A stretch of DNA of 62,144 bases, the filler included, from Acidimicrobiia bacterium (GTDB taxonomy: Bacteria; Actinomycetota; Acidimicrobiia; Spongiisociales; JAHEDJ01): the NCBI GenBank assembly GCA_029210695.1. It is 3 parts of 3 records of this genome, joined end to end, with 100 filler letters (N's around TTAATTAATTAA, not from the genome) between each part and the next. Parts side by side here need not be neighbours in the genome. Positions count along the whole stretch, not along the records: positions 29,105 to 45,750 come from JARGFH010000072.1; 2 more parts are not named here. One strand, given 5' to 3'. The notes under the pieces were generated by a model that was not told the origin of the DNA, ran no database searches, and saw only the letters and a list, made by a program, of their open reading frames with translations. Position 1 is the stretch's first letter, and each line of letters starts with the position of its first letter. Shown here piece after piece: positions 29,005 to 45,850 of this stretch. The position numbers and the translations under genes are program-made.

Positions 29005-29104
29005 NNNNNNNNNNNNNNNNNNNNNNNNNNNNNNNNNNNNNNNNNNNNTTAATTAATTAANNNNNNNNNNNNNNNNNNNNNNNNNNNNNNNNNNNNNNNN
29101 NNNN
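29005..29104. other. Artificial contig linker
   Basis: 44 N + TTAATTAATTAA (stops in all six frames) + 44 N. Confidence 0.98.
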
Positions 29105-31792: not shown

Positions 31793-31894
31793 GTCCCGGC
31801 CGGACGGCAGGTGAATCGACGCTCCGCAGCCGGCTTTGGCGGTAGTTTGGCGGCCCACCGGACTATGAGACCATCGAGGATGGAGGAGCTCATC

Positions 31895-34654
31895 GTGAAA
31901 TCGAACCGCGTCGTGATCTGTTTGGTGCTGGCTCTGGCGGCGTCTGCCTGCACCGGCGGATCCCAGTCGTCACCAACTACGGTCGACCGCGGTACACCCG
32001 CCGGCACCTCCGTCGACAATCCTCCGCAGACAGGTGAGGACCCCCCGCCGGACCCCGAAGGCTCTGGGGGCGAGATCCCCGTGCTCCCCATCCTGAGCTC
32101 TACAACAGAGTTGGCAGAGTCGGGAAACAGCGTGGCCGTCACCGGCGATGCCCGTCTGAATGGCGACGTCTTCCTCATCGGCCCGGATGGCGATCTGTCG
32201 ACGGCCCGGATGGAGGCGGGGTCGGCCTCGCTTGCGATTCCGGCCGGATCGAATCCCGGGCGATACGGAATGCGTCTTGGTGACGGGGAGGCCTGGGGGT
32301 CGATAACCGTTATGGATGCTCCCGGCCTGGCCGTGCTGGGTGCAGGGTACGTGCGGCCGGGCGAGTCTCCCGAGATCGAGGTACTCGTCCACGGGATCGA
32401 CACCGGCATGGTGGCTGCCATCGAACTCCGGTCGGGTGATGGCTCGGTGCAGCGGCTCATCCCACACTTGCTGCTGGGGCTGGCTCCGGTGCCGGCGGGA
32501 TCCGGGGCAACCGGACTGGCCGAGGGACGACATGTTCTCAGCCTTCCCGCCGGGTTCGAGGGGTCGGTGCGGGTAGTGGCCGATCGCCCGGACATCCTGG
32601 CCGATCAGTACGCCGAGGAGGAGCCCCGGGTGGCGTCCGGCGACCTCCGCATACGGAGCTGCGACGAGCCGAGCGGAATCACCGGTGACCTCGGCGTCCC
32701 GGGCGTGGTGACCGTCCACACCGCCGGATCTCCATACCCGCTGAGAACTCGCACCGACGACGGCCGTTTCCAGCTCGACCTTCTACCCGGTTCGGCCTTC
32801 ATCTCGGCGATCCTCGACGACGGCACCGTCCCGGCCGGCTCGCCCCAGCTGGTCAAAGCGGCGTGCGGCGCCTACGTCGACGTCTCCGACCTCACAGCTG
32901 CGGTGGATTCAGGACCCGACACCGGCGACTATCTCGGCGGCCTTACGGCCGACGACTTGTGGACATACTCGACGACGGCCACCGGTGACCTCTCTTTCGA
33001 GCAGGAGGGGTACACCGACTGCTCGGTATCGGACGGGGCGCTCGAGGTCACCTTCGGTGCCAGTTCGGCCGATCCGTGGTACTACACCCTGACGCTCGGT
33101 CCGCCGGTCGACACGGGGCTGCACGAAGGTGCGCTGCTACTCAACGACATCTTCGCCGACGACGTATCCGAAGGAACTGTGTCGGGTGAAATCGAGGTGG
33201 GTCGCATCGACGGACTAGATGCTATCGGAGGGGCGTTCACAGGCACTATCGAAGGTTCGCTGGGCACCATCAACCTCGACATTCAGTTCACTTGCGCGGT
33301 GTTCTCGCTCACCGGGGCGCTGCCCATCCCGCCCATGATGGCCACATCGGGAGGCCTGCTCTCGGCTCCGATCCACGTGGCGGCCGGCGCCATGCAGGTC
33401 GGTGGAGGAATCCGGTCCGGGGAGGAGTGTCAGAAACTCTTCATCAACAGTCCGGTAGGAGAAGACGTAGGGAACATTGAGCTTCTCATGGGGCATTGGG
33501 CGACAATGCTCATGCCTGAACTACCGCGGCTGGGAATCATCACCGCCGATGACATCCGGGTCATGATGGACCTGGAAGCAGCCCGACAGCTCTTCGGCTC
33601 CGATGAGGATTTGTCGATCGACATAGGCGGAGCTCTGGGCACTGAGTTTCTGCTGGAACTAGACAACGTTCAGGCTGGCGAGTCCTGGTTCTTCACTGCC
33701 ACCCTGTACGACATAGAAAACGGCCGCCGTCTGGCCGGCCTGGAAGCGACTGGAGAATCCGCCGGCGCCGCAGCCCAAGCAGCCGTCGACCGATGGTCCG
33801 AGATGGTCGAGCCGCTGGCCAAGGCCGGCATCTGCGCCGAGTTCGACCCAGAACGGGCCGTGGTCGACGTCGGCGCTTCTCAGGACTTCACGATTGAGAT
33901 CACCGATCTAGCCGGCGGGCCGGCCGAGTCACCTGAAGTTATCGAGGTCAAGAACGAGTGCGGAACCTGGGAACCGCCCACCGGTCAGGTTGAGGGGACC
34001 ATCTGGGCCACAACTTTCACCGCAGGAGACAAGGCCTGTCGAGCAACCATCTGGGCCAAAGTGGAAGCCAAGGGCACGGTCGGCACAGTGAAGGCATCCG
34101 CGGAGACGTCGATCGCCACTGAGGCCATGTGGCAGTTCGCGACCACCATCACGTTCGACGACGGCCACAGCCTCGTCACGGCCGAATCCTCCGGCGAATT
34201 CTTCGTCGAGCCCGATTTCGATGCGTTGATCGGAGCAGGCACGGGGAGGGTCGAGGGGGGCGGCGAGGCGCGCTGCGAGGTGAACGACGCCGTCTATTGG
34301 CCGCCGTATTCTGTGCTAGCCGACTATCAGGTGATGGTCACCGGAGCAGTGACCGAGCGTCCCAACATCAACGCCCCGTGGACGGTGGAGTTCGCTCCGG
34401 TCGGGTTCGACCTGAGCGTCCAGACGACCTATCCCAGCTCATATCCGTGCGTCGAGGCTGGCACCTACACGGATGACTTTCTTGGATCCACCGCCGTGGC
34501 TGCGTTGGTGTGGTTGCCGCACTGGATGGCTAGCCAGCCGAACGGGTTCGTCACCCACATGAACCCCACTGGTGATGGGATCGGTTTCGAGGAGCAGTTG
34601 ATCGGGATTCCCGGCGCCACCATTCGCGGGCGAATCTGGAGGCCCCAACCGTGA
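31895..34654 (+). CDS. Large multidomain surface lipoprotein (919 aa)
   Basis: GTG after GGAGGAG; lipobox AASAC; beta-rich modules with paired Cys; internal segment ITADDIRVMMDLEAARQLFG...IGGALGTEFLL resembles CsgG/TolB-N/DUF2380-type domains. Confidence 0.75.
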   Translation: MKSNRVVICLVLALAASACTGGSQSSPTTVDRGTPAGTSVDNPPQTGEDPPPDPEGSGGEIPVLPILSSTTELAESGNSVAVTGDARLNGDVFLIGPDGDLSTARMEAGSASLAIPAGSNPGRYGMRLGDGEAWGSITVMDAPGLAVLGAGYVRPGESPEIEVLVHGIDTGMVAAIELRSGDGSVQRLIPHLLLGLAPVPAGSGATGLAEGRHVLSLPAGFEGSVRVVADRPDILADQYAEEEPRVASGDLRIRSCDEPSGITGDLGVPGVVTVHTAGSPYPLRTRTDDGRFQLDLLPGSAFISAILDDGTVPAGSPQLVKAACGAYVDVSDLTAAVDSGPDTGDYLGGLTADDLWTYSTTATGDLSFEQEGYTDCSVSDGALEVTFGASSADPWYYTLTLGPPVDTGLHEGALLLNDIFADDVSEGTVSGEIEVGRIDGLDAIGGAFTGTIEGSLGTINLDIQFTCAVFSLTGALPIPPMMATSGGLLSAPIHVAAGAMQVGGGIRSGEECQKLFINSPVGEDVGNIELLMGHWATMLMPELPRLGIITADDIRVMMDLEAARQLFGSDEDLSIDIGGALGTEFLLELDNVQAGESWFFTATLYDIENGRRLAGLEATGESAGAAAQAAVDRWSEMVEPLAKAGICAEFDPERAVVDVGASQDFTIEITDLAGGPAESPEVIEVKNECGTWEPPTGQVEGTIWATTFTAGDKACRATIWAKVEAKGTVGTVKASAETSIATEAMWQFATTITFDDGHSLVTAESSGEFFVEPDFDALIGAGTGRVEGGGEARCEVNDAVYWPPYSVLADYQVMVTGAVTERPNINAPWTVEFAPVGFDLSVQTTYPSSYPCVEAGTYTDDFLGSTAVAALVWLPHWMASQPNGFVTHMNPTGDGIGFEEQLIGIPGATIRGRIWRPQP

Positions 34655-34765: not shown

Positions 34766-35308
34766 CTAGGAGTTCGGAGTCCAGGTCATGACCACCTCCG
34801 AGTAGTCCCCGTACTCGGCGACCTGCACGATGGCGGTAGCTTCTTCGCCTTCGCCGATCACCATCTCATTCGAAGAGGTCATCGACATCGACTCTCCCTC
34901 GATCCAGTCCTTGTAGAAGGCGATGGCATCCGCCGCGTCGCCGGGATCGATCTCGAGGGTGACGCTGTACGACGATCCGCTTGCCATCTCGAACGATGAG
35001 ACGTTTGTCACCTCGCTCGGGTTGAAGATCGGCATCGGGAAGTCGTCCGGGACTTGGGTGCCGCCCATCTGAATAGTGATGTCCTCGCCGGATTCGTCGG
35101 TGCCGATGATCGAGACGCCTTCATCGTCGCCGGTGACCGTCATGGTCGCATCGCCGTCGTCGGACTGGAAGACGATCGAATCGTCGCTGATCTCGATGTC
35201 GCCGCCGGATTCGCTCTCCACGATCCGTTCGGTGAGATTCTCAGCCGCGTTGCCACACGCTGAGAGCATCAGGGCCGCCGAGGCGATAGCAATCACGATT
35301 CTGCGCAT
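34766..35308 (-). CDS. Acidic hypothetical lipoprotein
   Basis: MRRIVIAIASAALMLSAC lipobox; AGGAG RBS; VPDDFPMP motif. Confidence 0.75.
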   Translation of the reverse strand: MRRIVIAIASAALMLSACGNAAENLTERIVESESGGDIEISDDSIVFQSDDGDATMTVTGDDEGVSIIGTDESGEDITIQMGGTQVPDDFPMPIFNPSEVTNVSSFEMASGSSYSVTLEIDPGDAADAIAFYKDWIEGESMSMTSSNEMVIGEGEEATAIVQVAEYGDYSEVVMTWTPNS

Positions 35309-35470
35309 CTTGCGTCTCCTTCTAGGGATGTCACCCACAGTGTCCGACGGAGCACCAAAGCGCCACCAAAGTTCATTACCAGGCCAGCGGACGGATGCTA
35401 TCCGATCCAGTCCCCCAGAGTGAGGAAAGAGGCTGAAGATGTCGGCCGCATCGGCATTCTCCAGAACCGT

Positions 35471-36574
35471 TCAGATCGATCCTTCGTCTACTTCGAACTC
35501 GACAACGAGTCCCGGTTGGCCGGCCGGCGGGTAGACCGCTTCGTAGCCGAGCTCGCTCTTCCAGTTGGGCCGGTCCCAATCCTCGTTGTCGGAGGATCGG
35601 TAGTTGAAATGGAGGGTCGGGTGGTCGCTGTGGAAGATGAGCCTGGCCACCGCGTCGTCGTCGGGATGATGAAAGCGGTTGCCACTGGAGGAAATCAGGA
35701 AATGCCGGCAGTCGAGCCTCTGCATCAACTCGTTGGAGACGTTGTGCTTGCTGCCGTGGTGGGGCACCTTCAAGGCGTCGATCTCGAGCTTCTGGAGCGC
35801 CCGTTCCTCTATCAGCCGGTCGAGTCCTTCGACCAGTGAATTACTCCGGGCGTCACCCGTGAACAGCACGCGGCGGTTGCCGTATTCGGCCAGGAAGCTG
35901 ATGCTGCTGGCGTTGGGCTTGCTGCCGTCCTCAGCAAACGCCCGGTTGGCCCACCGCTCGAGGTTCGGGGGGCGGCTCCCGAGCCTGTCCTTCTGGTACT
36001 TGGGAGATTCCTGGGCGAGTTTCGCCCCGGTGAACTCGCCGCCGGGCTCGAGGCCGGCGTCTTCGATCGTCTGCTTCCACGCCTTGCGAAGCGCAGTCAG
36101 ATCGGCACGGGTCGGCCCGAGGACCGTGATTCTCATCCCGCCGGGCAGGGCGAAAGCGGGCAGCCGCTCGTGTTCGTCAGAAGGAATGCCGATGGGCCCT
36201 CCCTTCGTCTTGCGATTGTGGCGAAAGCCTTGCTCGGCGATTCGATCGGACAGCATCTCTCCCTGTTTCGCACCGAGGGTGTCCTCCCGGATCTGGTCCC
36301 AGGCGTTGAACCAGAAGTCGCCGACCTGGATCCCGAGATCTCCACCCAGAAGCTTCACCATGGCGTCGATATGGTCGTTGTCGATGTGTGTCACCACCAT
36401 CAGCTCGATACGCCGCCTGCCGTCGATTGCATCGATCCTGGCTTTGACGGCATCGTACGTTCCGAACACACCTGCATCGATCAGCATCCGCCGGGGTTTG
36501 CCCGGGTCGCCGTATTCGATCCAGAGGGCGTCGCCCTCCTCAGCAGGCAGCATCTCGATCCGGAACAAGTTCAT
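35471..36574 (-). CDS. Cytoplasmic MBL-fold metallo-hydrolase (ComEC/Rec2-, Avs1a-like)
   Basis: EMLPAEEGDAL, LIDAG, VTHIDNDH, NASSI, LFTGDA, KVPHHGS, HHP; ATG overlaps the upstream TGA (ATGA); GGAGG RBS. Confidence 0.88.
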   Translation of the reverse strand: MNLFRIEMLPAEEGDALWIEYGDPGKPRRMLIDAGVFGTYDAVKARIDAIDGRRRIELMVVTHIDNDHIDAMVKLLGGDLGIQVGDFWFNAWDQIREDTLGAKQGEMLSDRIAEQGFRHNRKTKGGPIGIPSDEHERLPAFALPGGMRITVLGPTRADLTALRKAWKQTIEDAGLEPGGEFTGAKLAQESPKYQKDRLGSRPPNLERWANRAFAEDGSKPNASSISFLAEYGNRRVLFTGDARSNSLVEGLDRLIEERALQKLEIDALKVPHHGSKHNVSNELMQRLDCRHFLISSSGNRFHHPDDDAVARLIFHSDHPTLHFNYRSSDNEDWDRPNWKSELGYEAVYPPAGQPGLVVEFEVDEGSI

Positions 36575-39309
36575 CGGGCAATCCTCCAATCGGCGTCCCC
36601 GAACGCCACTACCGACAGCACCATCGGGTAACCGTCGGCAAGCGCCTTCCTGCGCAATTGGCGCAACACGTCTCCCACACCCTCGGTCGGCGCCTCGACC
36701 CCGGCGGCCAGGAGATCGAGGAGCTCAACGGCCACGGGGACGGCATGCCGTCCGAGGATGGTGGTGATGGTGCTCACGACTACGGAAACCCCGGCGCGCC
36801 TGAAGCGGGGCACCAATCCCTGGAACGGTATGTCCGGCCGGGCGGTCTCACAACCCAGCAAGACCGCCAGCTTGGGCTCCTCACCCGCACCCAGCCGGTT
36901 GCCCACCTGATTGACCCGCTCGAGTTCGTCGCCGCCGATCTCCATGGCGGCCGCCACACCCAGCCGATCCGTGTGGGGGAGCAAGAAGATCATCGATCGT
37001 TCTTCGGCGCCGGCGAGGTCCTGGAACTCGTCCCAGCCGGCCGCCCGGGCGACCGGGAATCCTCCCCCGGCCAGTCTGGCGGCGAGCGTGTCCTGGTCGG
37101 CTTGGCTGACGTTGGCGCTCATGCCCCACAGCACCGATGCGAACGGGTTCAACTGATCACGCCCGCTGGTCGGTTCGGCCTGGAGCCGGTAGTCGCCGGG
37201 CAGCTCGGTGAAGCCTGGATCATGAGCGTGCCGCTCGACGATGAAGCGGACCCCCCAGAATCCGGTGAGGCACACGGGGAGGTCGTCCTCTTCGCCCAAG
37301 GCGTCGCACGAGGCACAGTTGCCGCTCAGGACGGATACCTTCCAGTCGGGACACAGTTCCACGACGGTCGGGGCCGGCCGTGAGTAGAACACTTCCACCG
37401 GGAGGTAGGAGTCGGGGGCGGCGGAGATGATCTGGAGGCGGCCCTGCTCGAAGAATTCGGCAGGAATTCCGTGGTCGGTGACGAACGTCTGGTGCATGCC
37501 TTCGCCGATGGTGGCCAGGTCGAACACAAGTTGCAGTGTGTCCTCCGCTTCCATCGAAGCGAAGGCGTCGGGATCATCAGCGACCGCGGTGAGCAGACCG
37601 ATCAGCTGGTCTCGCTCCGCCGTGAGACCGTCGACTGAGCGCAGCGTGACGCCCGTATCGCGGATCACCGTGGCTGCCTTGGATCCCCGGTCGTTCTGGT
37701 TGACGACGACGCTGAGATCGAAGGGCTCCTGCTGGACCAATGTGGCGAAGCTGGCCCGCACGATGGCCTCGACCTCGATGACCGGACGCCCGATACGGGA
37801 CGGATTGGCCGCCACCACCGCCGCCCGGAACACGGCCGTTTGCAGGACCCGCCCCTGATACACGAGTGCGATTCGGCCGAAGGCCTCGCCGGTTTCGGCG
37901 AACTCGAGAGAGAACTCAACCGGCTCGGAGTCGCCGTGTTCGGCCAGTGCAATCGTCGCTCGCTGGGTCTCCCGGCGGTTCCCTTCGCACACGAACACGA
38001 CCCCGATGTCTTTGGGCCAGGTGAGATCGTCGGCCGGAACCGGAACGGGCGGTGCACCGTCGGCGGTGATCGAACGTTCGGTCGGCTCGCCGATCCATAC
38101 CGCCAGGGTGTACGTTTCACCGCGGCTGAGTGCCAGCCGGTGATCGCCTGTTCCGCGCCTGACGGCCCCGTTGAGGATGCGCGTCGAGCTGCCTTCGTCT
38201 GACGGCCTACCCCGTGAAGCAGTGGCCATCGGTTCGAGTTCCGGGAGTTCACCGGCCGCCGACATCAGCAACGCCAGCCCGGTGGCCTCATGGGTCTCTC
38301 CGACGTAGCCGAACCCTCCGAACAGCGCCCCGAGCTGCTCTCCGATGTCCCCGGCCCGAGCAGGTCCGCCCAACGTGAAGCCGCCGAGAAACTGGCCGAC
38401 CTCGACCGGTACCTCGATCTCGAAACCCTCGAGCTGTTGGAGATGCCGGACGAACTGTTCGACAACCCGCGACAGGCGGCTCTCCCGGATCAGTCGATCG
38501 GACATGGTCGTAAATCCGGCCCGGCCCGTCCGCATGAGATTCACTCTGCCCAGCACCCGGTCGAGCGGTTCGTCGTGGGAGAGTCCCTCGATCAACCAGT
38601 TGACCCATTCAGCCGCCGACGGCGGTCCGTCGGCCAGGTGGCACCCCCAGGCTCCGGTCCTGAGGGCGAGCCGGTCGGCAACGCGCGACACCTCTGCAGT
38701 CTCGACGTCGATTGGCCCAAGGGCGACCACGAGCCCTGGCGCGGTCGGTTCTGCCACATCGGTCAGGTCGGCTTCCGTCGCAGACCAGGGCAGTAACAGC
38801 ACGTCGCATCCGTCGACGGCGTCCCCCAGCGTCCACAGTTCCGGCCACCAGAGGTTGACCTCGAGGTCTGCCCGCAGCCCTATCGAGGCCGGATCCTCCA
38901 TGAATCCGATGCGCAGCGGCCACCGCCAGTCCAAAGGGCCGCGGCCGGGCGGGGCACCGAGGAACCCCGTGTAGCCCCGTTCCGGTTCGACGATCGCCCG
39001 CAGCCAGTCGTAGGCACAGCCGGCTGTAAAGCGGTCGCTGCTCAGCTCGATCCGGCCCGAAGCGCCGGTCGCCATCTGCGCCGCTCCGACGGGATCGACC
39101 CATTCGAAGCTCCGCTGAGGAGCCCTCCAGTCGACGGTGTCGGGGGCATCCTCGATTCGCCGGCGGACCGCGGCCGCCACATCCGGATCGTCGAGCAGCG
39201 TCGGGTCGTGTTCGAGAATGCCGAGGGTGACCACAGCATCGGCGGTCTGCCCGGAGGTCAGGCCGGCTCCGGCCAGCCACTCGAAGATCTGTTGCGTGGG
39301 ATTGGGCAT
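36571..39309 (-). CDS. CHAT (caspase-like) domain protein, 912 aa
   Basis: C-terminal LPVEVFY, FWGVRFIVERH, FLLPH (His), VLLGCETA (Cys), FRRAGVSVVVST, VGDVLRQLRR, VVAFGDAD; GAGGAG RBS before MPNPT. Confidence 0.8.
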   Translation of the reverse strand: MPNPTQQIFEWLAGAGLTSGQTADAVVTLGILEHDPTLLDDPDVAAAVRRRIEDAPDTVDWRAPQRSFEWVDPVGAAQMATGASGRIELSSDRFTAGCAYDWLRAIVEPERGYTGFLGAPPGRGPLDWRWPLRIGFMEDPASIGLRADLEVNLWWPELWTLGDAVDGCDVLLLPWSATEADLTDVAEPTAPGLVVALGPIDVETAEVSRVADRLALRTGAWGCHLADGPPSAAEWVNWLIEGLSHDEPLDRVLGRVNLMRTGRAGFTTMSDRLIRESRLSRVVEQFVRHLQQLEGFEIEVPVEVGQFLGGFTLGGPARAGDIGEQLGALFGGFGYVGETHEATGLALLMSAAGELPELEPMATASRGRPSDEGSSTRILNGAVRRGTGDHRLALSRGETYTLAVWIGEPTERSITADGAPPVPVPADDLTWPKDIGVVFVCEGNRRETQRATIALAEHGDSEPVEFSLEFAETGEAFGRIALVYQGRVLQTAVFRAAVVAANPSRIGRPVIEVEAIVRASFATLVQQEPFDLSVVVNQNDRGSKAATVIRDTGVTLRSVDGLTAERDQLIGLLTAVADDPDAFASMEAEDTLQLVFDLATIGEGMHQTFVTDHGIPAEFFEQGRLQIISAAPDSYLPVEVFYSRPAPTVVELCPDWKVSVLSGNCASCDALGEEDDLPVCLTGFWGVRFIVERHAHDPGFTELPGDYRLQAEPTSGRDQLNPFASVLWGMSANVSQADQDTLAARLAGGGFPVARAAGWDEFQDLAGAEERSMIFLLPHTDRLGVAAAMEIGGDELERVNQVGNRLGAGEEPKLAVLLGCETARPDIPFQGLVPRFRRAGVSVVVSTITTILGRHAVPVAVELLDLLAAGVEAPTEGVGDVLRQLRRKALADGYPMVLSVVAFGDADWRIAR

Positions 39310-39351
39310 GGCACTCCTCGATGTCACATGCGAGCGTTTTGTTCGCCCCGT

Positions 39352-40407
39352 TCAGGGGGCCAGGGGATGCGGAGCCGTCCAGTCGGCATCTTCCCATTGC
39401 ACTTTGGTGAGGTCGGCGCCGATCGTGTAGGCGGGCATGGCAGCCATGCGGTCTTTGACGCTCTGGTGGATGCGTGCGTCGACGGGAGTGATGGGTCGGG
39501 TCCTGAACGTGAGCAGAGCCCAGACCTTCCCCATCTCGTGCACGGTGCCCTCGGCGTCGCTCTTCGACACTGAGCACGCCTTCTTGTAGGCGCCCGGCCG
39601 CAGCAGGAGGCCCTGATCGAGGGCGCCGTCGGTCATCCATTTGAGGGCGATGGTGGCCAGTTCCCTGTCGAAAGAGAAGCCGCCACCGACATCGGAATGC
39701 ACCCCGGCGAACCACGCCTCCCGCAGGTCGGTCTTTCCCTTGGGATGCACGAGGTATTCCTCATAGGGGCGGCGCCGCTCGTTGATGGACACGGCGTGCC
39801 GGATGGTGCGCGCGTTGGGGAGTTGCCGCGTGTAGGGCCATTTGGGGTCGAACCGCAGGTAGCCGAGGGCTTTGACCGAATCCCACAGGCCGAGGTAGTG
39901 GATCGGCAGCGAGTGGCTGCCGCCGATCTCGTGGGAGAAGGTCGCCGCGAACCGGTCGACCTTGTCCCAGTCGTCGTCCGACCAGCGGTCGCCCTTCGTA
40001 TACGACCTGACCAGATAGGGCACCAGGTTCTCGGCGCCCGGACGCATCACGCCGGCACGGTGGGTGAGGCCGGCCAGGCCGCGGGCGGTAAATGCTCCCC
40101 TGCTGAATCCGAAGATGGACACGGAATCACCCGGCTGGTAGTTGCGGATCAGATACGTGTACGCCTCTTCGAGGTTGGTCTTGATGCCGGTGCCGAAGGC
40201 CAGGCCCATCAGCTTGGTGAATCGGCTGGAGAGCGGCGTCCACGCTCCGGGAGTACTGAACGTCCCTACTCCCGGGTCGTAGAAAGCGACCTGTCGGGTG
40301 GGGTCGGACAGGTCGAGCATCTCGTAGAGACCGAGAACGTTCGTGTTTCCCTTGGCTTTGACCTGATTTCCGGTGCCGTCGAGACACAGAACGATGTTCC
40401 TGCCCAT
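39352..40407 (-). CDS. DUF2235 / Tle1-like alpha/beta-hydrolase (phospholipase-like)
   Basis: RNIVLCLDGTGN, TNV, YDPGVGT, GFSRGA nucleophile elbow, GLWDSV, HAVSINERR, WFAGVHSDVGG. Confidence 0.92.
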   Translation of the reverse strand: MGRNIVLCLDGTGNQVKAKGNTNVLGLYEMLDLSDPTRQVAFYDPGVGTFSTPGAWTPLSSRFTKLMGLAFGTGIKTNLEEAYTYLIRNYQPGDSVSIFGFSRGAFTARGLAGLTHRAGVMRPGAENLVPYLVRSYTKGDRWSDDDWDKVDRFAATFSHEIGGSHSLPIHYLGLWDSVKALGYLRFDPKWPYTRQLPNARTIRHAVSINERRRPYEEYLVHPKGKTDLREAWFAGVHSDVGGGFSFDRELATIALKWMTDGALDQGLLLRPGAYKKACSVSKSDAEGTVHEMGKVWALLTFRTRPITPVDARIHQSVKDRMAAMPAYTIGADLTKVQWEDADWTAPHPLAP

Positions 40408-40930
40408 TGAATCCCCTTTTTCTCCTACGTCCGATGGCAGCGGTGCGATATCCGCCGCCACTCATCGATGACGCGACGCGGACGATCCCTTCTCATAATG
40501 CTTTGTGGCCGGCGCGGCAGTTCGCCCGGGCAAATCACGATGCTTTGGTGCAGACGGCACCCGACCCGTTCTACGGCGTTGTCCGTGGGATCACCGATCC
40601 TCACCGCGCGTTCGACCAGCACGATGGCGTGTCGTGTCCCCCGGCCGACCGACCCACGACGGACGGCGCTATCCCTGTCGATCATGCAGACTCCTATTCG
40701 GACCCTGCCCCTTGCGCGGTAACTTACGCAACGGACACCCACCATGCGTGAGGTCGCGAAAAAAGACCTTACCGGCGCGCCGGTTTCGAGGGATCCGACG
40801 GTAGCGCCCGGCAGGTCTCGCCGGCCGGCACCGCCAGGTCGAATCCGGCGATGCGTCCTGAGGCGCGGCAATCCCGGTTGCTCCGGGGACGCTGCGATCG
40901 ACAGGAGTAGGTTTCGGGTCGGAGGTCACT

Positions 40931-42418
40931 ATGAGAACCGATGAGTACATCCGTCACGACGCTGTCGGGCTGGCGGCGCTGGTCCGCGCCGGTGAGGTCC
41001 AGCCCAAAGAGCTGATCACGGCCGCCATCACCCGGATCGAGAGCCTCAATCCGCAGCTCAATGCGGTGATCACCAAGATCTACGATCGGGCGTTGGAGGC
41101 GACCGAGGCCGGTCTCCCGGACGGCCCGTTGCGCGGGGTTCCGTTCTTGCTCAAGGATCTTCTCGCTCACTACGCAGGAGTGCCGACCACCGCCGCCAGC
41201 CGCTATCTGCGCAACTTCACGCCCGACCACGACTCCGAACTCGTGACACGTTTTCGCGCCGCCGGGCTGGTCGTCCTGGGCAAGACCAACCTCCCCGAGT
41301 TCGGGCTGCTGGGTATCACCGAACCGGAGTTGTGGGGCCCGACCCGTAATCCATGGGCCCTCGATCACACCCCCGGTGGTTCGAGCGGCGGAGCCGCCGC
41401 CGCGGTCGCTGCCCGTTTCGTACCGGCCGCCCACGCAGCCGACGGCGGCGGCTCGATCCGCATCCCCTCTTCGGCCTGCGGGCTGTTCGGCCTCAAGCCC
41501 AGCCGCGGCCGGGTCCCGCTCGGCCCGGACCTGGGCGATTCGTGGATGGGCCTGGTCCAGGAGCATGCCGTCACCCGTTCGGTGCGCGACTCGGCGGTGC
41601 TGCTCGATGCCGTCGACGGCGTCGACCCGGGCGCCCCGTATGCCGCCCCACCGAAAGAGCGGCCATTCGCAGATGAAGTCGGCCGGGATCCCGACCGGCT
41701 GCGGGTGGCCTACACCGACGTCGCCCTCTTCGGCACGGACACTCATCCGGACTGCCGGGCGGCGGTTCGCGACGCGGCGGACTTGTTCGAAGAACTCGGT
41801 CACGACGTGACCCAGTCCACCATCGAGTACGACAAGGAAGGGCTGACCCTCGCCTATCTCCGGGTGGTGGCCGCCTCGCTGGCCGGAGACCTCGCCTATT
41901 ACAGGGCGTTGACCGGCAGAAAGCCCACCCCCGACCTGTTCGAAACCGAAACCTGGCTCCTGGCCACCATCGGCCGAAAGACACCGGCGTCGGTGCTGGC
42001 CGCCGATCTGGCCCTCATCGGACGCGAGACGCGCCGTGTCGCCCGGTTCTTCGAGCAATTCGACCTGTTGCTCACGCCGACCCTGGCCAAACCCCCGGTC
42101 CTGATCGGAGAGCTGGCGCCGAAGCCCGTGGAACGCAACGCGATGAAGGCGCTCCAGAAGCTCCCGGCCAGGAAGCTCCTCAATGTGGTGCTCGATCAAC
42201 TCGCCGCCGAGGCGCTAGCTGCCACGCCGAACACGATGCTCTTCAACCAGACGGGGCAACCTGCCATGTCCGTTCCGCTCTTCTGGAACGAGGCCGGCCT
42301 CCCCATCGGCGTGCAAGCCGTCGCCCGGTTCGGCGAAGAGGACCTTCTGTTCCGGGTGGCCGGCCAGCTCGAGCGAGCCCGCCCGTGGGCCGACCGCATC
42401 CCGGAACTCACACCGTAG
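40931..42418 (+). CDS. Amidase signature family protein
   Basis: [42 protein letters not shown]. Confidence 0.95.
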
Positions 42419-43645: not shown

Positions 43646-44182
43646 CTACTCCCCGGTCAGCACCGACAGTACTTCGTCGATGTCGGCGTGGTCGCCGGCG
43701 AAGTCCTCAAAGTCGGCGTAGCGGATCTCATTGCCGGGGCCGATGACCAGTGTCGCGCCGAGTTGGAACGGGCGCCTTCCCGAGCGGCTCTGGCGGTGGC
43801 CGCCCTTCAGGCTCTTGGCTGCGGCGGCCCAGGCTGAAGGGGAGACGATCGATCCAACTCCTAGCTTCTTCGTCCCGGCGATCTCAGCGGCCGTTCCTTC
43901 TTCGTCGAGCAGAACCGGGAACGGAACCCGTTCATCTTCGATGAAGGCCTGGGCGTAGCGCCGACCACCGGTGCCGATGGCGGTCACGCCCGCACCGGCG
44001 GCGAGGATCTCTTCGTATCTGTCGCGGACCTGACCGGCCCGCTCGCGGCAGGTCAGTCAGCCGAAGTGGCGGAGGAACAGGATCACTTGCGGTTGGGTTG
44101 CCCACCGGTCGCCGAGGCGATGCTCGTCGCCTTCGGGTCCGACGAGCACCTGATCGGCTAGGGCATCGACGTCAAATCTCAT
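43646..44182 (-). CDS. Peroxiredoxin-like AhpC/TSA_2 (SelU/SelL-related) protein with in-frame UGA, probable selenoprotein
   Basis: Continuous frame MRFDVD...ILFLRHFG-TGA-LTCRERAGQV...PFPVLLD...FQLGATLVI...DHAD. TGA at 44059-44057 occupies the first Cys of the family CxxC; the ORF track splits the gene in two. Confidence 0.85.
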
Positions 44183-44240
44183 GGGCAGAGTCTGGCGTCG
44201 AGGCGTCGCTATCGGGAATCGAGAGAGACGGACCCCTAAC

Positions 44241-44264
44241 ATGCACATGCTACAGTATGTGCAT
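44241..44264 (+). promoter_or_regulatory. Palindromic operator over extended -10 of the TA operon
   Basis: ATGCACAT-GCTACAGT-ATGTGCAT inverted repeat containing TGnTACAGT. Confidence 0.65.
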
Positions 44265-44505
44265 GCCGCTCTCACGCCGGGTCCAACTCTTGCTCGATCC
44301 GACTCGCTATGAACGGCTTGAACGAGCAGCAGCCCGGTCCGGGTCGTCCGTGGCGTCCGTGATCCGCAACGCCATCGATCGACTGCTCCCCGAGGACGCC
44401 ATCGACCCGGTGTCGGCGGGCAAGCTGTTGCTCGATGCGCCGGCGATGCCGGTCGAGGACTGGGACGAGATGAAGAAGTCGTTCCTGGACGAGATGACAC
44501 CGTGA
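44263..44505 (+). CDS. Ribbon-helix-helix (CopG/VapB-like) antitoxin
   Basis: RRVQLLLD...LERAAARSGSSVASVIRNAID; stop overlaps the toxin start (GTGA); alternative start at 44257. Confidence 0.85.
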   Translation: MPLSRRVQLLLDPTRYERLERAAARSGSSVASVIRNAIDRLLPEDAIDPVSAGKLLLDAPAMPVEDWDEMKKSFLDEMTP

Positions 44506-44930
44506 GGCTCCTAGTCGACACGGCCGTTTTCATCTACGCGGTCGGACGGGAGCATCCCCATCGTGAGCCCTGCCGCGAGCTCGTTCGCCTCCTCGCGCAC
44601 GAGGCCATCACTGCCGACATCAGCGCAGAGGCGGTCCAGGAGTATGTGCACGTTCGTACACGCAAAGGCATCGACCGATCGCAGGCGGTGGATGAAGCCC
44701 GTTCCATCGTCGCACTCTGCCGGGTGCACGATGTGACGATGACTGAACTCCAGGTCGGGCTTCAGTTGTTCCGCACCCACTCGGACCTCCACATGCGGGA
44801 TGCCATTCATGCCGCCACCGCTCTGGCTTGTCAGGCGTCGGTGTTGGTGAGCCCGGACCGCGCCTTCGATGATGTCCCCGGCATCGAGCGACTCGAGCCG
44901 GCCGAAGCACTCGCCCGCCTCACCGCCTGA
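44502..44930 (+). CDS. vapC: VapC PIN-domain toxin
   Basis: LLVDTAVFIY, VQE, RDAIHAATA, SPDRAFD. Confidence 0.9.
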   Translation: MRLLVDTAVFIYAVGREHPHREPCRELVRLLAHEAITADISAEAVQEYVHVRTRKGIDRSQAVDEARSIVALCRVHDVTMTELQVGLQLFRTHSDLHMRDAIHAATALACQASVLVSPDRAFDDVPGIERLEPAEALARLTA

Positions 44931-45750: not shown

Positions 45751-45850
45751 NNNNNNNNNNNNNNNNNNNNNNNNNNNNNNNNNNNNNNNNNNNNTTAATT
45801 AATTAANNNNNNNNNNNNNNNNNNNNNNNNNNNNNNNNNNNNNNNNNNNN
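45751..45850. other. Artificial contig linker
   Basis: 44 N + TTAATTAATTAA + 44 N. Confidence 0.98.

Follow-up and report, generated by a model that had tools for sequence, protein, structure and literature searches.

We propose that the operon of three genes that fills positions 35471-40407 of the window (the whole stretch of DNA analysed here, 62,144 nucleotides from Acidimicrobiia bacterium, assembly GCA_029210695.1) is probably a Canu-like anti-phage cassette of the abortive-infection kind, in which a protease would respond to a trigger by cutting two loops that obstruct the active site of a nuclease of the metallo-beta-lactamase (MBL) fold. All three genes lie on the minus strand, and reading of the open reading frames (ORFs) gives their order as a DUF2235 lipase gene, a gene for a large protein and an MBL hydrolase gene. 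A protease-gated design had been put forward in a first-pass annotation of the same DNA, and it is still the best reading, as judged from the protease fold, the family of the MBL and the evidence on the loops.

The published mechanism with which the operon is compared is the following. According to the main text of Tuck et al. (Science 2025, PMC12799240), the MBL of the Avs1a/LmuA type is a pro-nuclease that Hachiman and AVAST open with a linked trypsin-like protease, and a further radiation of such nucleases occurs downstream of caspase-family proteases, in loci called 'canu' that are of variable organisation and contain folds of the tetratricopeptide-repeat (TPR) and the immunoglobulin-like (Ig-like) type. 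The same text reports that KaeCanABC of Klebsiella aerogenes protects E. coli against T4, with the protection requiring the active sites of both the caspase and the nuclease and being ablated by mutation of G104 or G189, the predicted cut sites, and that the CanAB complex turns CanC into a nuclease in vitro. CanA, a protein of 390 amino acids (aa), is described there as having an N-terminal MALT1-like caspase and a C-terminal Ig-like fold and as requiring CanB (347 aa). An independent preprint (bioRxiv 10.1101/2025.09.03.673762) gives the same mechanism for trypsin-HamAB with an MBL.

The features of the operon are listed below, with the residues of the large protein counted, here and throughout, from the GTG at 39327 (918 aa).

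39352-40407, minus strand: gene for a DUF2235 (Tle1-like fold) serine lipase/phospholipase of 351 aa, with its ATG at 40407, identified by Pfam; the facultative first gene.
39310-39351, minus strand: spacer of 42 nt with a GGAG ribosome-binding motif, from the TGA of the lipase gene to the ATG of the protease gene, read directly.
36571-39309, minus strand: large protease gene, with its ATG at 39309 (912 aa) and, in the longest ORF, a GTG start at 39327 (918 aa).
38248-39309, minus strand: N-terminal alpha/beta region, residues 7-360, from the AlphaFold 2 (AF2) model; candidate sensor or regulatory part.
37636-38184, minus strand: beta-sandwich region, residues 382-564, the first part of which (382-508) is Ig-like, from the model and VIA.
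36574-37632, minus strand: helical linker and separase/CHAT-like clan-CD protease domain, residues 566-918, from VIA, Foldseek and hhalign.
36973-36975, minus strand: codon of the predicted catalytic His785 (LLPH), present in 223/223 and aligned to the CHAT His.
36850-36852, minus strand: codon of the predicted catalytic Cys826 (LLGCE), present in 223/223 and aligned to the CHAT Cys.
35471-36574, minus strand: gene for a ComEC-like MBL-fold hydrolase of 367 aa, a predicted gated pro-nuclease, from PADLOC, Foldseek and hhalign.
36371-36388, minus strand: MBL metal-binding motif H63-x-D65-x-D67-H68, present in 29/29.
36272-36289, minus strand: predicted gating loop 1, MBL residues 96-101 (...DTLG), with predicted local distance difference test (pLDDT) values <50; Gly101 in 29/29.
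35969-36016, minus strand: predicted gating loop 2, MBL residues 187-202 (...KYQKDRLGSRP), with pLDDT <50; Leu198-Gly199 in at least 80% of 69 MBLs.

The stop codon of the large gene and the start codon of the MBL gene share an ATGA overlap, as is read directly, and the three genes are one cassette, translationally coupled by this overlap and by the 42-nt spacer with its GGAG motif. The common orientation, the spacer, the overlap and the catalytic motifs are all as the first-pass annotation had described them. Judged by eye, no signal peptide is seen on the three proteins. A scan of 35000-41000 for promoters and terminators gave no promoter-like site and one terminator-like site (40771-40784), fewer than in shuffled sequences, and is thus uninformative.

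Concerning the MBL, Pfam gives a weak Lactamase_B match (9.6e-07), PADLOC gives LmuA (PDLC03854, 2.1e-64), Avs1a (7.9e-43) and RTasMBL (5.6e-36), and the NCBIfam Avs1a model gives 194 bits, under its cut-off of 420. The nearest solved structure is the beta-lactamase-like domain of ComEC (9ic4; Foldseek E 1.3e-12, template modelling (TM) score 0.73 by target), and ComEC is also what a search of PDB sequences with the MBL finds, weakly. The parallel with Avs1 that had been drawn earlier is borne out, with PADLOC and NCBIfam placing the protein in the family used by Avs1, Lamassu and DRT. The MBL is thus a member of the LmuA/Avs1a-type nuclease family, which published work shows is protease-activated. 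Its residues H63, D65, D67, H68, H272 and H273 are invariant in all 29 aligned sequences, and the motifs HIDNDH, GD and HHGS are present.

The evidence for gating comes from the loops. The model of the MBL (pLDDT 83.7, predicted TM score (pTM) 0.86) is confident save for residues 96-101 and 187-202. The first of these loops ends with Leu100-Gly101, its glycine being invariant; the second, which is the insert loop ending ...KDRLG that had been named earlier as a candidate cleavage site, carries the conserved Leu198-Gly199. By eye, the short motifs around G104 and G189 of KaeCanC are those that hold Gly101 and Gly199 in the MBL. As a stand-in for the CanABC layout we used plasmid loci that have a Peptidase_C14 caspase of ~395 aa, a hypothetical protein of 404-503 aa and an MBL, and hhalign of the MBL with the MBL of such a locus gave a probability of 100% (E 1.8e-86), with both Leu-Gly motifs aligned.

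The large protein of 912 aa has no match in Pfam, PADLOC or NCBIfam; six large proteins of other clades likewise have no PADLOC or NCBIfam match except one faint BovA, and a search of PDB sequences with the profile of the family gave a chance match alone (E 0.55). The assignment of its C-terminus comes from structure. In the AF2 model (pLDDT 84.6, pTM 0.81) strands and helices alternate over residues 1-360, a disordered linker spans 366-380 and an all-beta sandwich spans 384-564. In the comparison by VIA, which is independent of Foldseek, the protease region matches separase (Z 19.5 over 307 residues, root-mean-square deviation 4.2) and the TPR-CHAT protein Csx29 (Z 19.0), with gingipain (Z 16.9), SAVED-CHAT (Z 15.3), caspases (Z about 9-11) and MALT1 (Z 8.0-8.3) lower. 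The top Foldseek matches are again Csx29 (E 2.6e-9) and then separase (9e-9), and the ESM Atlas model of residues 620-918 gives TM scores of 0.66-0.78 against CHAT-domain models. When 30 C-terminal regions of the family were aligned by hhalign with 12 bona fide CHAT domains drawn from genomes of relatives, His fell on His and Cys on Cys (E 4.7e-5). The Pfam CHAT model matches weakly in 3 of 23 relatives (best 0.0038), and so does Peptidase_C25, also in 3 of 23 (best 0.003). Based on these models and alignments, the C-terminus is by its fold a separase/CHAT-type clan-CD protease with a His-then-Cys dyad, and the reading of the protein as a CHAT-type cysteine protease in the first-pass annotation is backed by fold (VIA, Foldseek and Atlas) as well as by hhalign.

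The alignment of the 23 relatives shows His785 (LLPH) and Cys826 (LLGC) to be invariant and a C-terminal GDADW to be conserved, and in the alignment of 223 family members His785, Cys826, Cys659 and Cys686 are invariant in every sequence. Within residues 659-700, which are sited just before the protease core, Cys671 is found in 94% and His700 in 88% of the 223; the four residues Cys659, Cys686, Cys671 and His700 are candidates for a metal or disulfide site. The first part of the beta sandwich is matched in VIA by beta-sandwich domains of transglutaminase, complement and invasin proteins (Z 8-9, ~100 aligned residues). The N-terminal region is the least conserved part of the protein in the 223-member alignment. 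Its first 360 residues have no informative structural match, with the VIA and Foldseek matches barely covering them, and in the Atlas it has features like those of the N-terminal parts of other CHAT proteins and no named domain. The family is large, with 3888 clusters at E ≤ 1e-3 and 1496 at E ≤ 1e-30 in a profile search of 1.84 billion representatives.

It might be argued that the large protein is a scaffold or a pseudo-protease and that the MBL is opened by another protease, for example the trypsin-like one of the Dokdonella operons. A Trypsin_2 gene is indeed present in the same operon at 4 loci, and the main text of Tuck et al. describes trypsin-like proteases that open the same nuclease family; but His785 and Cys826 are invariant across the 223 sequences, and the trypsin gene is confined to one clade and has no counterpart in the window, so that we regard this explanation as very improbable.

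The pairing of the protease with the MBL was examined in a scan of one genome per species, which gave 178 relatives of the large protein, with 79 loci being kept. These loci come from about ten phyla: Actinomycetota, Acidobacteriota, Chloroflexota, Pseudomonadota, Bacteroidota, Myxococcota, Thermodesulfobacteriota, Chrysiogenota, Gemmatimonadota and Verrucomicrobiota. In 76 of the 77 loci whose sequence continues past the protease gene, the gene immediately downstream codes for an MBL homologue; the exception is locus L072, and L052 and L078, which stop at a contig edge, are outside the 77. The protease-MBL pair is thus the conserved core, and no other gene family recurs around the cassette in the 79 loci. 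The co-occurrence of the genes that had been noticed in the window therefore holds in other genomes, both for this MBL and for a lipase, which is present in 55 of 70 loci.

The cassette is accessory, being patchy among relatives and sometimes plasmid-borne. The large protein is found in one of 41 related genomes, namely that of the window itself, with none in 6 of the same genus (completeness 56-97%) and none in 34 of the same order. Two genomes of this genus have the flanking genes, for cytochrome c and an amidase, with no operon between them; the two genes are 1.7 kb apart there and ~10.6 kb apart here. MBL homologues occur on 74 plasmid records, 50 of them typed as conjugative, and protease-MBL pairs occur on Mycobacterium and Cupriavidus plasmids (family hidden Markov model (HMM) 5.6e-98 and 1.1e-74), with the Cupriavidus pair beside an IS3 transposase.

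Based on the above, the following mechanism is proposed. The large protein would hold back its separase/CHAT-type protease until it senses a trigger, presumably via the N-terminal 600 residues. The triggered protease would then cleave the loops of the MBL at or near Gly101 and Gly199, and the freed DNase would degrade DNA, halting the infected cell. The lipase, where it is present, may act as an optional second effector that attacks the membrane, or as an accessory, either activated by the protease or working in parallel; this is the weakest step.

The evidence on the lipase is as follows. The protein matches Pfam DUF2235/T6SS_Tle1-like_cat (PF09994) at 5.1e-71 with 239.8 bits against a cut-off of 27, has no PADLOC or NCBIfam match, and has Ser102 (GFSRG), Asp176 (WD) and His237 (GVHS), which are invariant in 12/12 partner lipases. 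Among the 70 loci with upstream sequence (9 of the 79 loci end without it), a patatin gene is adjacent to the protease gene in 42 and farther off, beside a broken large gene, in 2; a DUF2235 gene is adjacent in 5 and lies 3.4-5.1 kb upstream on the same strand in 6; and neither is found in 15. The patatin identity was given by Pfam PF01734 in 4/4 representatives tested. In the loci of the protease family the lipase and protease genes never differ in strand, and they usually overlap or are separated by no more than tens of bases. Both types of lipase retain their catalytic residues, and no shared (docking) domain was found between the DUF2235 and patatin partners (hhalign 0.4%). The lipase is a facultative, interchangeable part of the cassette, and it is not essential to the core because 15 of the 70 loci are without it.

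In the protease tree (FastTree, 60 large-protein sequences, local support values, with two long-branch joins flagged) the DUF2235 partners occur at three or more places: in an Acidimicrobiia clade of seven, the window's own sequence among them, in the long-branch L076, and in a Dokdonella clade of four that nests among patatin-linked sequences. Both lipases are also found beside the unrelated, Peptidase_C14-type operons: a DUF2235 gene 38% identical to that of the window precedes such an operon, between insertion sequence (IS) elements, on a Bradyrhizobium plasmid, and a patatin gene stands divergently beside one on a Sinorhizobium plasmid. The Bradyrhizobium case is locus L105 (Bradyrhizobium barranii plasmid pBb38S5b, 1241-6083), with DUF2235, Peptidase_C14 caspase, 503-aa hypothetical and MBL genes in one orientation; IS5 and IS1380 transposases flank the operon, and genes for an S8 peptidase and an AAA ATPase adjoin it.

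These observations admit two explanations of the lipase beyond that of an optional part. The first, which we regard as possible and put forward tentatively, is a two-effector executioner cascade, in which one separase/CHAT-type protease would unlock a DNase as well as a membrane phospholipase, with two unrelated folds having come independently to fill the lipase position in CHAT-type and in MALT1-type systems. If this is true, caspase-nuclease immunity would have in the lipase a third component that is general and has not so far been described, and the N-terminal region of 600 residues would take the place of CanB as an infection sensor of a new kind. The second, somewhat less probable still, is that the protease and the MBL make up a Canu-like defence of which the lipase is neither substrate nor effector, but rather an independent travelling gene or an upstream sensor or regulator of changes in the membrane or lipids. 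This would be consistent with the 15 loci without any lipase, with the lipase being ~5 kb away in L001 and L002 and separated by other genes in the Dokdonella group, with the divergent, not co-transcribed patatin of the Sinorhizobium plasmid, and with the DUF2235 match (residues 21-278 to profile positions 1-286), which has no large insertion and shows no obvious gating loop. It is less consistent with the presence of a lipase, invariably co-oriented and mostly close or overlapping, in 55 of the 70 loci, with the filling of the same slot by two unrelated lipase folds, with the correlation of protease and patatin distances (rho 0.83, 30 loci), and with the occurrence of both lipase types beside the unrelated Peptidase_C14-type operons.

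The surroundings of the operon bear on whether its role is anti-phage at all. Its contig occupies 29105-45750 of the window (16,646 bp), between runs of N at 29005-29104 and 45751-45850; the tRNA-synthetase and other housekeeping genes past 45850 belong to other contigs and are uninformative on its context. The contig carries metabolic or envelope genes, for cytochrome c, acyl-CoA dehydrogenase, amidase, META and AhpC-like proteins, together with one VapBC-like pair. Among 118 flanking ORFs from 39 loci (ORFs >650 aa being excluded from the sample), most are metabolic or regulatory by Pfam and there is little sign of defence islands, the hints of defence or mobility being ThsB_TIR (1), Peptidase_C14 (2), one integrase, one ISL3 transposase and one phage sheath gene.

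Such flanks would fit a cassette that is not anti-phage and that serves regulated self-destruction or nutrient scavenging, by breakdown of DNA and lipid, in development, stress or kin conflict, or that is a toxin against other cells; likewise CHAT proteins with no known defence role are common in related genomes (the Pfam CHAT model finds them in 14 of 41), and DUF2235 is, by its Pfam name, the fold of the Tle1 type VI lipase toxins. We nevertheless consider this improbable. No secretion signal is seen by eye, and neither among the scanned ORFs of the contig (Pfam) nor among the recurrent neighbours is there a gene for a type VI secretion system (T6SS), for immunity or for export; the MBL matches models from proven anti-phage systems and keeps both of the loop glycines that, according to the main text of Tuck et al., Canu defence requires; and the distribution is patchy and includes plasmids.

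Besides the metabolic surroundings and the 15 loci that lack a lipase, the following points weigh against a Canu-like cassette. The large protein is not detectably related in sequence to the CanA-like Peptidase_C14 protein of the stand-in plasmid locus (hhalign 0.06%), and with the family HMM, too, CanA-like proteins are not recovered at E ≤ 10. The operon lacks a separate middle gene as a partner like CanB, with hhalign against the middle protein of the CanABC-like locus giving 0.2%, and the structural equivalent of CanB may lie inside the N-terminal 600 residues of the large protein. Because the large protein shows no sequence relation to these CanA-like and CanB-position proteins, the Canu mechanism, as tested elsewhere, is transferred here by analogy and by the homology of the MBL. 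The Pfam CHAT model (PF12770) has no match at E ≤ 0.01 in the large protein and none in the window's own genome, and the hhalign probability to the CHAT domains is just 68%. The two low-pLDDT loops rest on prediction from 29 sequences. Finally, the correlation of pairwise distances is high for protease and MBL (rho 0.90, 51 loci) as well as for protease and patatin (rho 0.83, 30 loci), which shows joint inheritance, not co-adaptation, and which, there being no species-tree control, could arise from shared descent alone. On balance the protease-gated cassette proposed above is still preferred.

The remaining features of the contig and the variants of the cassette can be described briefly. The VapBC-like pair, which the first-pass annotation had noted on the contig and which is confirmed by Pfam as a PIN gene with a weak ribbon-helix-helix partner, lies at 44098-44930, ~4 kb off the operon:

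44502-44930, plus strand: PIN-domain gene (Pfam 2.7e-14) of the VapBC-like pair, with a 4-nt overlap with the upstream weak ribbon-helix-helix ORF.

Two genes of the same contig encode proteins with lipoprotein-like N-termini and no Pfam family, one of 947 aa at 31811-34654 (plus strand) and one of 190 aa at 34766-35338 (minus strand), which converge on the operon or adjoin it; these two and an upstream 148-aa ORF were considered as parts of the system and ruled out, not being conserved in related loci.

Among the variants, a five-gene form occurs in Dokdonella/Lysobacterales, with genes in the order DUF2235, Trypsin_2 protease, SH3-domain protein, large protease and MBL (L056:2270-10949 and L064:3179-11598, also L039 and L063), so that there are two protease classes in one operon. 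In a Chloroflexota locus (L030:6288-11147) a second MBL of the same family (PADLOC LmuA 4.8e-16) replaces the lipase upstream, giving the order MBL, protease, MBL. In Accumulibacter (L038:2-5765 and L073:3-6334) a Peptidase_C14 caspase gene and a very long ORF (1589-1778 aa) stand divergently upstream of the patatin, protease and MBL genes, and may be a second caspase-based system. In a lipase-free locus from a metagenome-assembled genome of Actinomycetes (L004:8307-12158) the stop of the MBL gene is overlapped by a gene for 1283 aa, which has no Pfam or PADLOC match.

The interest of the cassette is threefold. It was only in 2025 that nucleases unlocked by proteases came to be known as an effector that bacterial immune systems share, and here a very large and unnamed family (3888 representative clusters) pairs a nuclease of the Canu type with the caspase-like branch that contains separase and the CRISPR-associated CHAT protease. 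The two interchangeable and unrelated phospholipases beside both types of protease point to a second, membrane-directed arm, which is not discussed in the published main text. With three genes only, the operon offers a compact test case for the choice of several substrates by a caspase-like protease, for the trigger, and for the question whether bacteria destroy DNA and membrane together, as happens in animal cell death.

We now compare the operon with known systems. For AVAST type 1 (Avs1abc), the Avs1a score of 194 bits is below 420, and the operon yielded neither an NTPase nor a trypsin domain; for Lamassu (LmuA-MBL), the MBL matches LmuA, but the large protein has no PADLOC match and there is no SMC gene nearby; both assignments are rejected. 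The likeness to Hachiman (HamMAB), AVAST Avs1/Avs2, Lamassu and DRT lies in the same MBL family, as identified by PADLOC, and in the shared design by which, as far as the published text describes those trypsin-MBL modules, two inserted auto-inhibitory loops are removed by a genetically linked, co-evolving protease. In those modules, however, the protease is trypsin-like and fused to a helicase, a STAND NTPase or an SMC sensor, with the MBL gene usually upstream, whereas here it is a cysteine protease by fold, neither an NTPase nor a helicase domain was found, and the MBL gene lies downstream.

Craspase, with the TPR-CHAT protein Csx29, and separase provide the best structural matches of the protease region, with the dyad in equivalent places. 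They differ in that here there is no CRISPR, TPR or SAVED part, the predicted substrate is a nuclease instead of Csx30 or cohesin, and the match to Pfam CHAT is below threshold. The two lipase folds are the same as those of the CBASS patatin CapV and of the type VI Tle1 (DUF2235), which are membrane-attacking effectors elsewhere, and the catalytic residues are retained; by contrast, there is here no cyclase or cyclic-nucleotide sensor and no T6SS context, and the lipase accompanies a protease-nuclease pair as an optional neighbour. A Tle1 toxin of a T6SS was considered and rejected, with no VgrG, Hcp or immunity gene in 24 Pfam-scanned ORFs (20219-55458, 13 of them in the operon's contig) and none recurrent in the 79 loci, the look-out having been confined to these ORFs and to the recurrent neighbours, with the rest of the genome outside the search.

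The closest system is Canu. The first-pass annotation could match the operon to no named system, and this claim does not stand, protease-activated MBL pro-nucleases and specifically the Canu loci having been published in 2025 (PMC12799240; bioRxiv 10.1101/2025.09.03.673762). The likenesses to Canu, as these sources describe it, are the gene for a gated ComEC-like MBL pro-nuclease directly downstream of a gene for a clan-CD cysteine protease; two disordered insertions in the nuclease, each with a conserved glycine, to which the two low-pLDDT loops predicted here correspond; an Ig-like fold within the protease protein; and a small, patchy and sometimes plasmid-borne cassette. The differences are that here a single protein of 912 aa has its separase/CHAT-like domain at the C-terminus (Z 19 to separase and Csx29 vs Z 8 to MALT1) and is not of the CanA type, and that a lipase gene is added. 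The words 'patatin', 'lipase', 'phospholipase' and 'CHAT' do not occur in the main text of Tuck et al., although the 'other diverse protease families' mentioned there may already include the separase/CHAT-like clade, and a search made mostly of papers outside subscription journals gave no description of a CHAT-MBL-lipase system beyond the Canu and trypsin-MBL papers.

The system is therefore not new in kind, being covered by Canu; what stands of the earlier claim of an uncatalogued system is that the protease family and the added lipase differ. To judge from sequence comparison, the nuclease is of the same family as that of Canu and the protease of a different clan-CD branch with a different architecture. 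What the locus adds to the published picture is the form with a DUF2235 lipase and the evidence that the lipase has repeatedly been swapped between patatin and DUF2235, together with the linkage of both lipase types to both types of protease.

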